IMG/VR virus record: IMGVR_UViG_2690316243_000012
DNA length: 6,798 bases
Origin: a virus
Taxonomy: Duplodnaviria > Heunggongvirae > Uroviricota > Caudoviricetes
Strand: one strand, 5' to 3'
The translations under genes were made by a program, and so were the position numbers. This document shows positions 1,679 through 6,798 of this stretch, one piece after another. A model generated the notes under the pieces. It did no database searches. It saw only the letters and a list, made by a program, of their open reading frames with translations, and was not told where the DNA came from. Positions within the stretch are counted from its first letter, which is position 1, and each line of letters starts with the position of its first letter.

Positions 1679-2389
1679 TCAAACAGCCTTGCTATACTTC
1701 TGAGAAATCTTCGTTAACTGCTCAATATCAGCCATCAAAGCAATCTTCTTCTGCGACTCATATTCACTAACAAGTTCTTTCATAGTATCAAGTTCTTTTT
1801 TAAGCTTTTGCTTTAACTTATCCAGTTTACCGGAATAATGCTTAGTCAAATTAGCTTCAGCTAACTGAAGAATCTCTTCATCTGTTTTATCAGTCATCAG
1901 AATAAATTGACCAGAACCCCTTAATGCTTGTCTGACATCAATTAACCGGAACCCTTCAGGGATACTTTGAAGAACTTTAGGAACGTCTTCAATCGCTGTA
2001 CCAAAACCATCATTAAAGTTTCCTTCATAATAGATAAACGGGTTTGACTTAATCTCGTAAGCAATATCATATTCTGAAGGTTTCGAGGTTTCTTCGAAGT
2101 TCTTAGCAGCATCGTAAGCGACATCAAGTCTAAGACGCTGTGATTTTAAAGCTGGGTAATATTCACGCTCAAGCTCAAATAGTGCTTCAGTTTTGCAGAT
2201 ATCAGGCATTTCTTGAGGCTCAGGAGACACAAAGGAAATTACCTTTGGTGACATCTTTAGCTCTTGCTCAAGCTCAATGCGCTTGTCATGCTCTTGACGC
2301 TGAATAGTATGTAGCGGATGTTCACCCTGTGGTGACCAGTCTCCGAAGCTATCAACCTTTTTACCGTTAATATATAAATCGTTTGTCAT
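1679..2389 (-). CDS. Hypothetical protein (236 aa), function unknown
   Basis: ORF-track ORF. ATG at 2389-2387 with SD AGAGGA 7 nt upstream (rc of 2397-2402); TGA stop at 1681-1679. Acidic, coiled-coil-like C-terminus (KLDKLKQKLKKELDTMKELVSEYESQKK). I do not recognise the family. Confidence 0.65.
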   Translation of the reverse strand: MTNDLYINGKKVDSFGDWSPQGEHPLHTIQRQEHDKRIELEQELKMSPKVISFVSPEPQEMPDICKTEALFELEREYYPALKSQRLRLDVAYDAAKNFEETSKPSEYDIAYEIKSNPFIYYEGNFNDGFGTAIEDVPKVLQSIPEGFRLIDVRQALRGSGQFILMTDKTDEEILQLAEANLTKHYSGKLDKLKQKLKKELDTMKELVSEYESQKKIALMADIEQLTKISQKYSKAV

Positions 2390-3370: not shown

Positions 3371-3406
3371 ATAAGCTGTTTTTCTAATTTCTCTTAAAGT
3401 CTCGGA

Positions 3407-3607
3407 CTACCAATAACCTAATTCCGCTTTATTTCGTTCAAACCATTCCGCTGTAACTGCTGTCTTTAGTGTTGCGTTTGGGCTGGTGGCATGAATGAAG
3501 ATATCTTTTGGATTGCAAGCATCACCGAAACCACCTTCTTTGATGAGCAGGTCTGATACATGCTTAATCATTTTATCTGTCAAATATTCGAATTTAATAC
3601 ATAACAT
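3407..3607 (-). CDS. Hypothetical small protein (66 aa from the ATG start; track ORF extends to a TTG at 3640)
   Basis: ORF-track ORF 3407..3640 begins at a TTG. The in-frame ATG at 3607-3605 overlaps the TAA stop of the upstream HNH-like gene (minus strand TAATG) and has SD GGAG 5 nt upstream, a classic translational-coupling junction. TAG stop at 3409-3407. No recognisable family. Confidence 0.45.
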   Translation of the reverse strand: MLCIKFEYLTDKMIKHVSDLLIKEGGFGDACNPKDIFIHATSPNATLKTAVTAEWFERNKAELGYW

Positions 3608-3879
3608 TAAATCTCCAGGAGTAAATTGTTTGGGTGGCAATTTCTTTTATTACCATCCCTGAAGATAATCTTTTTAGTTGCCTGAACTTCATGATGCAAA
3701 AACCAGATGACATACTTCAGATAATAATCACGAGTGCCATAACGAATCATTGGATTACCGTAAGCATCATCTCTTGTCTTAACCTCTCCACCATCAATCC
3801 ATTCAAGCATTCCTGTCTCATAATTAATCATGAAGTAAGTTGCAAAGAACCGTTTAATATCATCTCGCCATTGCTTCAT
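3607..3879 (-). CDS. HNH_3/NUMOD4-like small protein (90 aa), probably catalytically degenerate
   Basis: ORF-track ORF. ATG at 3879-3877 with SD AGGAGG 7 nt upstream. N-terminal LEWIDGGEV...YGNPMIRYG resembles the NUMOD4 motif; C-terminal YLKYVIWFLHHEV...IIFRDGNKRNCHPNNL resembles the HNH_3 motif (H.DGNK.NN...NL), but the position of the catalytic His reads F-R-D-G. Family assignment from memory. Confidence 0.5.
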   Translation of the reverse strand: MKQWRDDIKRFFATYFMINYETGMLEWIDGGEVKTRDDAYGNPMIRYGTRDYYLKYVIWFLHHEVQATKKIIFRDGNKRNCHPNNLLLEI

Positions 3880-3881
3880 AA

Positions 3882-4160
3882 TCAGACCTCCTGAGACAGT
3901 TTGTGAATTTTGATACTTAGTAACCTTGCTAAATCCAGTCCAAAAGCATTTAAGGATTTCAGACTATCAAGGTCATCTTGCTTAATCCTGATATGGTGTC
4001 TTGCAGCCTCTAAGCGACTATTAAGCAAATCCTGTTCGTTAATATCACGGTTAATTGCAAGCTTCATCACTGCTGAGTGTGGCAGACCTGTAATGTTTTT
4101 GATTCGGTTCAGTTCATCAAAGGCTGTCTTTGTAACTCTGGTTAATGTGTGTTTATTCAT
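3882..4160 (-). CDS. Hypothetical small protein (92 aa), possibly DNA-binding
   Basis: ORF-track ORF. ATG at 4160-4158 directly follows the TAA stop of the 185-aa gene (minus strand TAAATG) with SD GAGGA 8 nt upstream; TGA stop at 3884-3882, 2 nt before the next ATG. No recognisable family. Confidence 0.5.
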   Translation of the reverse strand: MNKHTLTRVTKTAFDELNRIKNITGLPHSAVMKLAINRDINEQDLLNSRLEAARHHIRIKQDDLDSLKSLNAFGLDLARLLSIKIHKLSQEV

Positions 4161-4718
4161 TTAAAAATCCTCTGTAACTAAATAGGGGTCAAACTCGAAA
4201 TCTGGTTGCTCGTTTTCCATTGGCTCAATATTCCCAACGGCAATATGATGTTCAACAATGCCAATTAATTTCGCGCACATCACAGCAAGCAAAGCGCAAT
4301 ATTTATCGCTTGGTAATTCGTAACTAAGTCTGGTTGCCTGTCGCTGAAGATGATTTGTCACGGTGGATGCGTTAATTTCGTCAAGATTCTTTAGCAGATA
4401 AAATAGTTTTTTGTTGTATTTCGGGTGGCCTTCACTTCTACAGAACCCAATAAAAACATCATCAAGCTTGCTTGGTAACTGCTCGTAACTGTCAAAGTTA
4501 GCCAGATAATTTTTAATAGTATTCTTTGTTGTTTTGCGTACTGGCATAAATCTGTCTCGTGGCGTAATGCTACGAATGACCGCTTCAATGTTCTTACGTT
4601 CGGATTTGCTAAAGGTTGGGACTTCGTAGCTGGTGGGGTTGTTTGTGTAAGCGTAGGAGTTGTGCTTGTTGCGTTCTCTTGATGCCTGAAGCATCGCTCT
4701 AAATTCTGAATACTGCAT
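4161..4718 (-). CDS. Hypothetical protein (185 aa); first gene of the minus-strand operon
   Basis: ORF-track ORF. ATG at 4718-4716, TAA stop at 4163-4161. About 45 nt downstream of the predicted minus-strand promoter; the SD is weak (GAGAG ~11 nt upstream). No recognisable family. Confidence 0.6.
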   Translation of the reverse strand: MQYSEFRAMLQASRERNKHNSYAYTNNPTSYEVPTFSKSERKNIEAVIRSITPRDRFMPVRKTTKNTIKNYLANFDSYEQLPSKLDDVFIGFCRSEGHPKYNKKLFYLLKNLDEINASTVTNHLQRQATRLSYELPSDKYCALLAVMCAKLIGIVEHHIAVGNIEPMENEQPDFEFDPYLVTEDF

Positions 4719-4769
4719 TCATGTTCTGACTCTCATAAGATGTTATTATTCTGTTAACCTATATATACA

Positions 4770-4798
4770 ATATTAGCATTTTCAAAGACTAATGTCAA
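4770..4798 (-). promoter_or_regulatory. Candidate sigma70 promoter for the minus-strand operon
   Basis: On the minus strand: -35 TTGACA (rc of 4793-4798), 17-bp spacer, -10 TAATAT (rc of 4770-4775). Read directly; the -35 matches consensus perfectly. Confidence 0.5.
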
Positions 4799-4804
4799 GT
4801 ATTT

Positions 4805-4834
4805 TTAACATTTTCGTAACATCTGTGGTATAAT
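4805..4834 (+). promoter_or_regulatory. Candidate sigma70 promoter with extended -10, driving the plus-strand small-protein transcript
   Basis: -35 TTAACA (4805-4810), 18-bp spacer, extended -10 TGgTATAAT (4826-4834). Its -35 is 6 bp from the -35 of the divergent minus-strand promoter. Confidence 0.55.
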
Positions 4835-4900
4835 GGGTTTATGGGGAGAGTAAAATATGAGGCGTGGCTATGTATTTGGTCGCATATTTTGCATTGCACA

Positions 4901-4998
4901 CAGACCTCTTCAATCGCCCTGTAACGAGTTAAACGACCTCTTCAGGTCAACTCATAAGGTCAGGTACTTTTTGTGTCAGAATGCGATTGAGAGCGTCT
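4901..4998 (+). repeat. Repeat element copy B: ~98-bp homologue of copy A, in the leader of the small membrane-protein gene
   Basis: Left arm CAGACCTCTTCAATCGCCCTGTAACGAG (4901-4928) matches A's left arm at 26 of 28 positions; right arm GTCAGAATGCGATTGAGAGCGTCT (4975-4998) carries the same AGAATGCGATTGAGAGCGTCT core as A. The interior shares the first ~20 bp with A (TAAAC..CT.TTCAGG), then is ~20 bp shorter. Ends 15 nt before the ATG at 5013. Confidence 0.65.
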
Positions 4999-5012
4999 TA
5001 CAAGGAAAACTA

Positions 5013-5189
5013 ATGGTAAATCTCCCTCCTGAGCTGGGGTCACCTGATGTATGGACTGGTGGAGGTATTGGGCTGATTGCAGGCCTGCTACTTCGCTACG
5101 TCCTCGTCAGAGTGCTTGTTGTCTTTAAACTGTTCGGTCGTACATGGACGCTTGACCTTAAGGATAACGACCACACAGACCCCCGTTAA
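5013..5189 (+). CDS. Small single-pass membrane protein (58 aa); candidate toxin, holin-like or exclusion peptide
   Basis: ATG at 5013 with SD AAGGA 7 nt upstream; TAA stop at 5187-5189. Translation MVNLPPELGSPDVWTGGGIGLIAGLLLRYVLVRVLVVFKLFGRTWTLDLKDNDHTDPR has one hydrophobic helix (about residues 15-41). The track ORF 4857..5189 is the same frame extended to an ATG at 4857, which has its own SD GGAGAG; that N-terminal extension is encoded entirely by repeat copy B, so I prefer the short form. Confidence 0.5.
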   Translation: MVNLPPELGSPDVWTGGGIGLIAGLLLRYVLVRVLVVFKLFGRTWTLDLKDNDHTDPR

Positions 5190-5200
5190 ACTCCTTCAAA

Positions 5201-5260
5201 ACCCCTGCACGAGATGACAGATAGAAGTCTATGGTACAGGGGTGTCTTTAGCATTTTGTG
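5201..5260 (+). terminator. Candidate terminator-like hairpin after the small membrane-protein gene
   Basis: Perfect 7-bp stem ACCCCTG (5201-5207) / CAGGGGT (5237-5243) with a 29-nt loop that has its own short inverted repeat (ATAG..CTAT), followed by the T-rich GTCTTTAGCATTTTGTG. The large loop makes this a weak call. Confidence 0.3.
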
Positions 5261-5324
5261 CTATCTATTAAAAAATAGCTTGACAGAACCGGAAAGCTGT
5301 ATCTATCAAGCATTCACCTCTCTG

Positions 5325-5501
5325 ACAGTAATTTCTAAAAGTTCTTATTTTTCAATAAGTTGTAATTAGCCATATATAGAGAACTGACAAGTCTCTTCAC
5401 AGACAACTCTGCAACCTTAACAGTAACTTCTAAAAATGCTTATTTTTCAACGAGTTGTAATCACCCAATATATAAGGCTGTCCAGTACCTTCACAGATAA
5501 C
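5325..5501. repeat. Tandem direct repeat, two ~83-bp units at a ~95-bp period
   Basis: Unit 1 (5325-5407) and unit 2 (5420-5501) share ordered blocks ACAGTAA, TTCTAAAA, TTATTTTTCAA, AGTTGTAAT, ATATATA, CTTCACAGA, AAC, with divergent sequence between them (by eye roughly 70% identical). A partial third copy (ACAGTAACTT plus AT-rich tail) is at 6457-6490. Confidence 0.7.
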
Positions 5502-6285
5502 TTCAAGCCCTCTTAACCGCCCCACTAATCGGGAGAAGAGCGATAACCCCAGAGAGGGAAGCTCCTTTCTTAACCGACCTCTTAAACGACCTTTACAGAC
5601 CTTGTTCAAGGTAATCACAATAGTTTTTCTTCCCTCGGTTTCCTGTGTTCCTCGGCTGGCTATTGAGATTTGAAAGACCTCTGTAAGCGCTCTCTTAGCG
5701 AGAGAAAAATCATTCATAGTGACCCCAAGCGAAGCGCCCCTCTAAAAAAAGATTTTTTAGCTATTTTGTTTAAAAGCATATCAAACGATACATTTTATTG
5801 ATTTAGGTCAAAGACAAAAGCATTGACAAAATGGTAAGATTGTTCACATGACCTTACTTAACAGACTTTTAAGAGACTTTGAAACAGCCTGTTTAACAGG
5901 TCACTACCTCTGGTCTTATCGTTCCCTTCTTTCTAGGTGGTTATCTGTTAAGAGTTTTTCAGTTTTTATTCTTAAGATAATTGTTAAGATGATACTCTCC
6001 CTTCGGGTTATATCGTATCTCTTCTCCCGTTAAATATCCCTTCACAGTCAGACTAAATAACACCTGTGTAGTTCTTGGTAGAATCTTTCAAGGTAACTTA
6101 GCTCTGAGTTTATGAAGTTGACCTATGAGATAGACTCTACCGAATCTGTTAGTCAATTGTTGCTTAGGTGCTGCTAAGGCTTACTTAGTGGAAAGAGAGG
6201 GGATATGTGACCATAGGGGAACCCCTCCTGTTAAAAGACTACTTAGAAGTCTGAGGTTTTAGTAAAATCTGTGAATATGGCTTCT

Positions 6286-6392
6286 CAGACGCTCTGTAAC
6301 GCATTCTAAGCGATTTTACCCCTTTATTTTAAGGTGGTTAGTACATCCCTATAGGTTACCCCTAAAAATGGGGTTAAAACTCGCTACAGAGC
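6286..6392 (-). repeat. Repeat element copy C: inverted, diverged copy of element A/B lacking the outer left arm
   Basis: Plus-strand CAGACGCTCTGTAACGCATTCTAAGCG (6286-6312) matches the reverse complement of A's right arm (CAGACGCTCT....GCATTCTAA identical apart from CAATC to GTAAC). The reverse complement of 6313-6392 aligns with A's interior and inner left arm (AGGGGTAACCTATAGGG vs AGGGGTAGCCTGTACAG; CCACCTTAAAATAAA vs CCACCCTAAAATAAG; GCTCTGTAGCGAG vs GCTCTGTAACGAG). Confidence 0.55.
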
Positions 6393-6643
6393 TTTCTATG
6401 AGATTAGCTTCTAATCGAATCAACTATGAGGTTTGGTAGGATTGTGCAAAATCTGTACAGTAACTTTTCAGAATCTGAAAATTTTTATAAAAAATGACTA
6501 GCCCTCTTTGAATCTCATCTTCCCCGAATCTTCAAAAATATCTGACAGATGTCTGTAGCTGCTAAGTACCCGTCACACCAGCTATGTGACCCCCTTGGCA
6601 AAAAAGCCAAATATCAGCTACATCCATGTAACTATTCAGTAAC

Positions 6644-6798
6644 TTATTTAGCAAGTCTGTAATAAGTTGCTCTAGAGATTCCTAACTCTTCCTGAATCTG
6701 CAACCTCGTCTTACCTTGTGAAATAAGCGTCTGTACAGCCTCTGAAGAAGCTTTTACAGGCCTCCCCATATGTACCCCTTCAGCTTTAGCACGTTCAA
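6644..6798 (-). CDS. Small serine recombinase (resolvase/invertase family), C-terminal HTH domain only; 5' part lies beyond the window
   Basis: Not in the ORF track (only 50 codons inside the window). Minus-strand translation of 6796-6647 is ERAKAEGVHMGRPVKASSEAVQTLISQGKTRLQIQEELGISRATYYRLAK, then TAA at 6646-6644. The GRP motif followed by a helix-turn-helix ending ..G.SR.T.YR.. is the characteristic C-terminus of Hin/Gin/Tn3-resolvase-type serine recombinases (from memory). Confidence 0.7.
   Translation of the reverse strand, partial: ERAKAEGVHMGRPVKASSEAVQTLISQGKTRLQIQEELGISRATYYRLAK

Follow-up and report, generated by a model that had tools for sequence, protein, structure and literature searches.

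Can a protein of the HNH_3 type in which phenylalanine occupies the position of the general-base histidine still cut DNA, and if not, what has it become? This question is raised by a 90-codon open reading frame on the minus strand (positions 3607..3879) of a 6,798-nt stretch of DNA, referred to here as the window, which is part of a phage-like chromosomal island of 11–13 kb in E. coli. Its genes include those for a large and a small serine recombinase, for baseplate and tape measure proteins and, in some cases, for a Dam methylase, along with small genes. This set is found at two chromosomal sites, tonB-yciI and wrbA-ymdF (L001 8715-19327; L012 3628-16621; L013), and 544 of 5426 complete E. 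coli genomes contain parts of the island. We saw neither head nor terminase genes in the island, which could be a mobile satellite-like element instead of a randomly decayed prophage. Neither a megablast search of phage and plasmid collections with the whole window nor a tblastn search of phages with the 90-aa protein returned a match, and the element is known from chromosomes only.

The gene starts with an ATG and specifies a product that begins MKQWRDDIKR and ends IIFRDGNKRNCHPNNLLLEI. Its ribosome-binding site, AGGAGG (3887..3892, minus strand), lies 7 nt 5' of the ATG and within the 3' end of the upstream 92-aa gene (3882..4160, minus strand), which is itself abutted by a 185-aa gene of unknown function (4161..4718, minus strand). 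At the other end, the TAA stop codon (3609..3607) and the ATG of a 66-aa gene of unknown function (3407..3607, minus strand) have one base in common, forming a GGAG-ATT-TAATG junction (3605..3616, minus strand) in which the GGAG that precedes the 66-aa gene start occupies 3616..3613. A promoter-like site upstream of these genes, TTGACA-17-TAATAT with a TG (4770..4798, minus strand), is a match to consensus only. Because of this site and the close gene spacing, the 185-aa, 92-aa, HNH-like and 66-aa genes look like one tightly coupled four-gene operon. A preliminary description of the window had given the coordinates of the HNH-like gene and its C-terminal motif correctly. The motif, IIFRDGNKRNCHPNNL (3622..3669, minus strand), comprises residues I71-I72-F73-R74-D75-G76-N77-K78-R79-N80-C81-H82-P83-N84-N85-L86 and thus holds the I72, F73 and N85 sites discussed below; the F73 codon is TTC (3663..3661, minus strand). 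The same description had the gene translationally coupled to the 66-aa gene, which is borne out by the TAATG overlap and the presence of a separate GGAG, although the 66-aa gene is not a fixed partner, as other genes occupy this junction elsewhere. An open reading frame on the plus strand (3634..3894) was rejected as a shadow ORF, since synonymous changes follow the minus-strand frame.

To which family the protein belongs can be stated firmly. Against the Pfam HNH_3 profile (PF13392) it scored 22.7 bits (E=7.5e-5) and did not reach the gathering cut-off of 24.8; residues 52-88 matched profile positions 1-38 of 46, leaving positions 39-46 unmatched, and three PHROG families named 'HNH endonuclease' matched weakly. 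Homology to HNH_3 is nevertheless secure, because a paralogue from the same island (P0011) scored 33.4 bits, above the cut-off, and distant relatives scored 28-275 bits. An exhaustive phmmer scan over 1.84 billion representatives with the 90-aa protein yielded 18 proteins, among which P0011 is the nearest relative that is not identical; a word-indexed search for homologues, run with the family profile, contributed hardly any more. When PDB sequences were searched with the single sequence, only chance matches were returned (antibody light chains, xylanase); I-HmuI came up only when a family profile was used, and even so at a marginal E of 0.16.

An AlphaFold (AF2) model built on the 18-sequence alignment had a pLDDT of 94.1 and predicts an N-terminal helix, a four-stranded sheet, a second helix and then the β-hairpin of a His-Me finger, with no α-helix after it. 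In a Foldseek comparison of this model with the PDB, the sole credible match was I-HmuI (1u3e, chain entry 1u3e_M; E=4e-3, prob 1.00, TMq 0.61), and the sheet-helix scaffold that precedes the finger superposes on 1u3e, as an N-terminal fold of the I-HmuI kind would. Among predicted viral structures in BFVD, 53 matched at E<=1e-3; those with names were mostly phage HNH or homing endonucleases, with HNH endonucleases reaching a TMq of 0.88. The Pfam result, the score of the paralogue and the structural match to I-HmuI together uphold the HNH_3-like label that the gene had been given. Two further labels had no such support. 'NUMOD4' found no counterpart in PF07463, with E<=1 as the limit for the protein itself and E<=0.1 for relatives, and the N-terminal half of the protein resembles the N-terminal sheet of I-HmuI at the level of fold only. 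'AP2-like' likewise found no match to Pfam AP2 (PF00847) at E<=1, and no residues remain beyond the HNH_3 remnant that could form such a domain. Relatives with AP2 have it as a domain of its own on the C-terminal side of HNH_3, as in the canonical relative P0026, in which ..LDHRDGNKRNN..NLRICTKSEN is followed by an AP2/ERF-like domain matching 1gcc and 7wq5.

I-HmuI, a nicking homing endonuclease of Bacillus phage SPO1 that belongs to HNH_3 (His-Me finger group 2), is thus the reference against which the active site can be read. Its Asp74, His75 and Asn96 were reportedly assigned by experiment in work by Shen and colleagues in 2004. Residues 15-88 of the 90-aa protein, spanning the N-terminal sheet, the helix and the β-hairpin, align to I-HmuI residues 17-92, with I-HmuI numbering taken straight from the printed alignments. 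In the family-profile alignment, D75-G76-N77 correspond to Asp77-Gly78-Asn79 and N85-L86 to Asn87-Leu88, so that the DGN..N....NL signature is kept; N85, the structural Asn of the hairpin, occupies the one column without variation in the 18-sequence alignment (A1). The same alignment places I72 on Asp74 and F73 on His75, and a pairwise alignment with the paralogue sets F73 opposite His73 (IIFRDGN versus IIHRNGN). In all, three alignments agree in putting Phe73 on the position of the general-base histidine, and F73 was invariant across all the Phe-bearing alleles that we examined (hereafter F alleles). The chain then ends at I90, which corresponds to Thr92 and lies 5 residues past N85, so that the position of Asn96, which in I-HmuI sits in 'TQKIN', is absent; the model shows a short strand (residues 86-88) and no terminal helix. 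I-HmuI also differs in having C-terminal DNA-binding domains that are missing here (174 aa versus 90 aa), and the 90-aa gene is not intron-encoded.

Three elements make up a His-Me active site (PMC5714182): the first strand ends in a His, the residue that precedes this His is a metal ligand, either acidic or another His, and the opening turn of the helix supplies an Asn or His. Judged by sequence and model, all three are gone from the 90-aa protein: the His has become Phe73, the Asp has become Ile72 and the whole Asn-bearing helix is missing. Given these three losses, we infer that the one-metal His-Me mechanism of DNA cleavage would not be open to the protein, which is very probably inactive as a nuclease. 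The replacement of the general base by Phe had been proposed in the preliminary description, and it had been recognized there that a conserved His at the catalytic position, for example the HH at residues 62-63, would speak against it. We found none: H62 and H63 align to Cys64 and Glu65 of I-HmuI, at the end of the preceding helix. The non-nucleolytic reading offered at the time is accordingly still the best one, and it gains from the Ile at the metal-ligand position and from a chain that stops before the metal-binding helix.

The paralogue shows how the truncation may have come about. This 95-aa protein (WP_000805963; P0011), encoded in the same island and annotated 'HNH endonuclease', is 39% identical to the 90-aa protein in a gapless alignment, is equal in length up to NL[LM]Q and is truncated at the same point. 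Its gene belongs to the same operon and stands beside a small partner gene that is 71% identical to the 66-aa one. It differs in keeping His73 (IIHRNGN), in lying after the small gene and not before it, and in being commoner: the His allele was found in 226 of the 5426 complete genomes and the F allele in 67, and a few genomes (strains 2e and CAVP888) carry both. The F-allele reading frame ends ..NLLQEV* or ..NLLLEI*, encoded by CAGGAGGTTTAATG, and this DNA is nearly identical to the stretch with which the 92-aa gene closes (..SQEV*, CAGGAGGTCTGA), such that the 3' end of the upstream gene is echoed at the 3' end of the HNH-like one. The His allele ends ..NLMQ-VRDFKRN*, and its last seven codons lie within the downstream flank; this flank shares 96% identity with positions 3392-3408 of the window, which are non-coding. 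By this comparison, the two alleles have a common core that stops at NL[LM]Q, with tails acquired from whatever comes next, and their common ancestor had already lost the helix; for that reason the His allele, too, is probably inactive as a nuclease. The terminal Asn95 of the His allele was considered as a surviving metal ligand and rejected, as the tail is encoded by the flank and the spacing is off by one.

Loss of the histidine extends beyond the enterobacteria. In the ten non-enterobacterial relatives found by phmmer we counted 25 HNH_3-like repeats, whose residue at the His position was F (17 repeats), Y (5), S, C or V, and in no case His. Seven proteins with multiple repeats (two in P0015, P0016, P0019, P0020 and P0023, five in P0024 and six in P0021) conform, like the 90-aa protein, to h-h-[FY]-x-D-G-N-x-x-N-x4-N-L, with an aromatic residue at the catalytic site; unlike it, they are far longer. 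Pfam HNH_3 recognizes them, and several of the His-less relatives score 113-275 bits on this profile. They come from a library without names or genomic context. Since none of the 25 repeats in the ten relatives has a His, its loss is a recurrent and stable state in this branch of HNH_3 rather than a one-off lesion.

Within the E. coli island, the surroundings of the gene vary in a manner that bears on its origin. Following the 185-aa and 92-aa genes we found the HNH-like F allele with a 66-aa, a 128-aa or an 84-aa gene or with an 84-aa pseudogene, a 71-aa gene followed by the His allele, or the 128-aa gene alone. Thus the HNH-like gene has differing downstream genes in L006, L008, L009 and L011; it is in reversed order with the small gene in L002 and L004; and in L013, which lacks it, the 92-aa gene is joined directly to the 128-aa gene, between which the HNH-like ORF is precisely inserted in L006. 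Such presence/absence polymorphism between conserved flanks is as for a free-standing homing endonuclease gene. All cassette junctions read GGAGGTYTRA(TT)ATG. Comparison of positions 3380-4165 of the window with L002, L006, L008 and L013 showed cassettes inserted, replaced and reordered at this sequence, with the final codons of each cassette ORF coming from the junction or the flank. On this comparative evidence the HNH-like gene behaves like a formerly free-standing homing endonuclease gene that has become a cassette.

The 66-aa protein is restricted to the Enterobacteriaceae and had no family match in Pfam, PHROG, NCBIfam or PADLOC. Its model is β-α-β-β-α, with one of five models confident and four poor, and it had no structural neighbour and no match to a His-Me or other nuclease (best E=0.15). 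Residues H16, D29, N32, D35, H39 and N44 are invariant or nearly so. For all four operon proteins, NCBIfam and PADLOC gave only weak sub-threshold NCBIfam matches and no known defence system.

Several lines of evidence indicate that the HNH-like gene is maintained where it is present. We compared nine E. coli copies of the F allele, namely that of the window and eight from complete genomes, together with a distant copy that is 84% identical (L005). Values of dN/dS were 0.04-0.11 among the nine and 0.12-0.23 against the distant copy. The segregating codons among the F alleles comprised 11 synonymous and 6 conservative non-synonymous changes (binomial p=4e-5), and about 19 of the 37 changes relative to L005 were synonymous (p=6e-6). 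All nine E. coli copies fetched have an intact 90-codon ORF, and an annotated HNH endonuclease feature covers each of the 40 genomic matches listed (67 in all). The evidence favours purifying selection, as read from these substitution patterns, on a gene that is not decaying where it is present and is nonetheless dispensable, since broken database copies exist and many copies of the island lack the gene. The broken copies include frameshifts (P0004, P0006 and P0007) and fusions or deletions (P0002 and P0010). The L005 copy (562-834) is metagenomic, has a TGA at codon 5 and is otherwise open; a different 73-aa gene follows it, and then a diverged homologue of the 66-aa gene.

We therefore propose, with a probability of about 55%, that the 90-aa gene specifies a non-catalytic, probably DNA-binding, C-terminally truncated relic of an I-HmuI-type homing endonuclease. 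Its ancestor would have been a free-standing enzyme of the HNH_3 kind, from which it retains the β-hairpin of the finger and, N-terminal to that, the scaffold of sheet and helix, but not catalysis. Made as the product of the third gene of the operon, the protein would serve as a small DNA-binding factor, presumably through the surface by which I-HmuI contacts DNA, and the gene is an optional cassette that recombines at the conserved Shine-Dalgarno/stop/start junctions. The confident fold prediction and the purifying selection suggest that the protein is probably still used. That it binds DNA, as judged from its homology to the N-terminal domain of I-HmuI, we regard as an even chance, and its net charge of about +2 (estimated by eye from the sequence) counts against it. 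Precedent comes from two inactive His-Me fingers, the Smad MH1 domain and the nuclease-like domain of Enpp, which have lost the catalytic His while their fold still serves to bind DNA or substrate (PMC5714182). The 90-aa protein resembles them in both respects and differs in lacking the helix; these domains, which are eukaryotic and fall into His-Me groups 16 and 21, have a complete β-β-α fold.

Much of the same evidence could be taken to mean that the gene does nothing at all, being a homing-endonuclease gene caught in its degeneration phase and open by chance or because of its recent origin. Loss of the catalytic residues and the helix, C-terminal codons made of junction sequence copied from where the 92-aa gene ends, the frameshifted, fused and nonsense variants, the islands without the gene and the rarity of the F allele among complete genomes would all be expected of such a remnant. 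Against this stand dN/dS values that stay within 0.04-0.23 and a significant excess of synonymous changes in both comparisons, the intact reading frames and annotated features described above, a strong ribosome-binding site and a very confident fold prediction; moreover, distant relatives retain His-less domains, some of them as tandem arrays. A functionless remnant is therefore somewhat unlikely in our view. Retained nuclease activity is a good deal less credible. It would have to proceed through H82, through H62/H63 or through a site to which the co-translated small protein contributes the missing part in trans. His82 lies in the finger loop and is conserved among F alleles, which counts against the reading that we favour, and relocation of a catalytic residue to the loop is known among His-Me enzymes: in PacI, a loop Tyr replaces the catalytic His (PMC5714182). 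However, H82, which aligns to Leu84 of I-HmuI, is not conserved in the His allele or in distant relatives, and both the metal-binding helix and the metal ligand are gone. As for completion in trans, the tightly coupled partner does have the invariant or nearly invariant His, Asp and Asn residues listed above, and the HNH-like and small genes remain linked in either order, but in other strains the 66-aa gene is swapped for unrelated genes or pseudogenes. We rejected its specific form, a split HNH in which the 66-aa protein supplies the helix and the catalytic residues, as only one of the five models of that protein is confident, none of the matches is nuclease-like and the partner is replaceable.

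A further alternative keeps the scaffold and gives it a protective role: the protein would act as a decoy that sits on the site targeted by active HNH_3 relatives, be they the His allele or enzymes of incoming phages, and so blocks cleavage or homing. A scaffold that has been kept while catalysis was lost would suit this role, as would the fact that F alleles in some strains and His alleles in others take up one and the same slot region of the operon, with both present in a few genomes. The proposal is purely inferential, and the His allele against which it would protect is cut off at the same point, has a flank-encoded tail and so is probably inactive as well; we consider it improbable. The non-catalytic, truncated relic with a probable DNA-binding role accordingly remains the reading that we prefer. 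A bolder extension, which we put forward tentatively and think unlikely to hold in full, is that the HNH_3 'half finger' without helix or His may be a domesticated, modular unit for sequence-specific DNA binding, deployed singly, as in the 90-aa protein, or, in other bacteria or phages, in arrays of two to six modules, and that in the island it would form a regulatory or anti-homing device with interchangeable small partners, the junctions being the recombination points of cassette shuffling.

Other features of the window are described here in their own right. Two back-to-back promoter-like sites at 4770-4834, TTGACA-17-TAATAT on the minus strand and TTAACA-18-TATAAT on the plus strand (consensus matches only), separate the operon from about 2 kb (4719-6640) that has no convincing ORF and is still 85-93% conserved between strains. 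In L012 the equivalent of this region contains a Dam methyltransferase gene, which is missing from the window. A 27-nt inverted repeat (4978-5004 and 6281-6307; 81% complementary, arms 1276 nt apart) is adjoined by an invertase-like small serine recombinase gene (6644-6796, minus strand) that runs off the end of the window, and these sequences might together constitute an invertible switch. A tandem direct repeat in two copies (5317-5408 and 5412-5502) of about 95 bp is 74-85% identical over extended stretches, and a related motif, ACAGTAACTT, is found again close to the recombinase gene, at 6453-6466 and 6632-6645. A 236-aa protein (1679-2389, minus strand) is called a 'transposase' in several RefSeq genomes, a name that finds no support in Pfam, PHROG or NCBIfam; its gene lies upstream of the tape measure gene, where tail genes would be expected. 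Rfam gave no match over the window, and a search of the literature on degenerate or inactive HNH_3 domains and on satellites with a tape measure gene found nothing specific.

These findings do not overturn current understanding, and they are relevant to homing endonucleases, pseudo-enzymes and mobile elements. The name 'HNH endonuclease' that RefSeq applies to both alleles would not fit the F allele and is probably wrong for the His allele too, making the F allele a concrete case of a nuclease annotation passed on to a likely pseudo-enzyme. The locus also provides a natural example of small-gene cassettes that are inserted, swapped and reordered at translational-coupling junctions. More broadly, the F allele draws attention to HNH_3 domains, little noticed so far, in which Phe or Tyr stands where the catalytic His would be; some of these form tandem arrays and may be DNA-binding modules.
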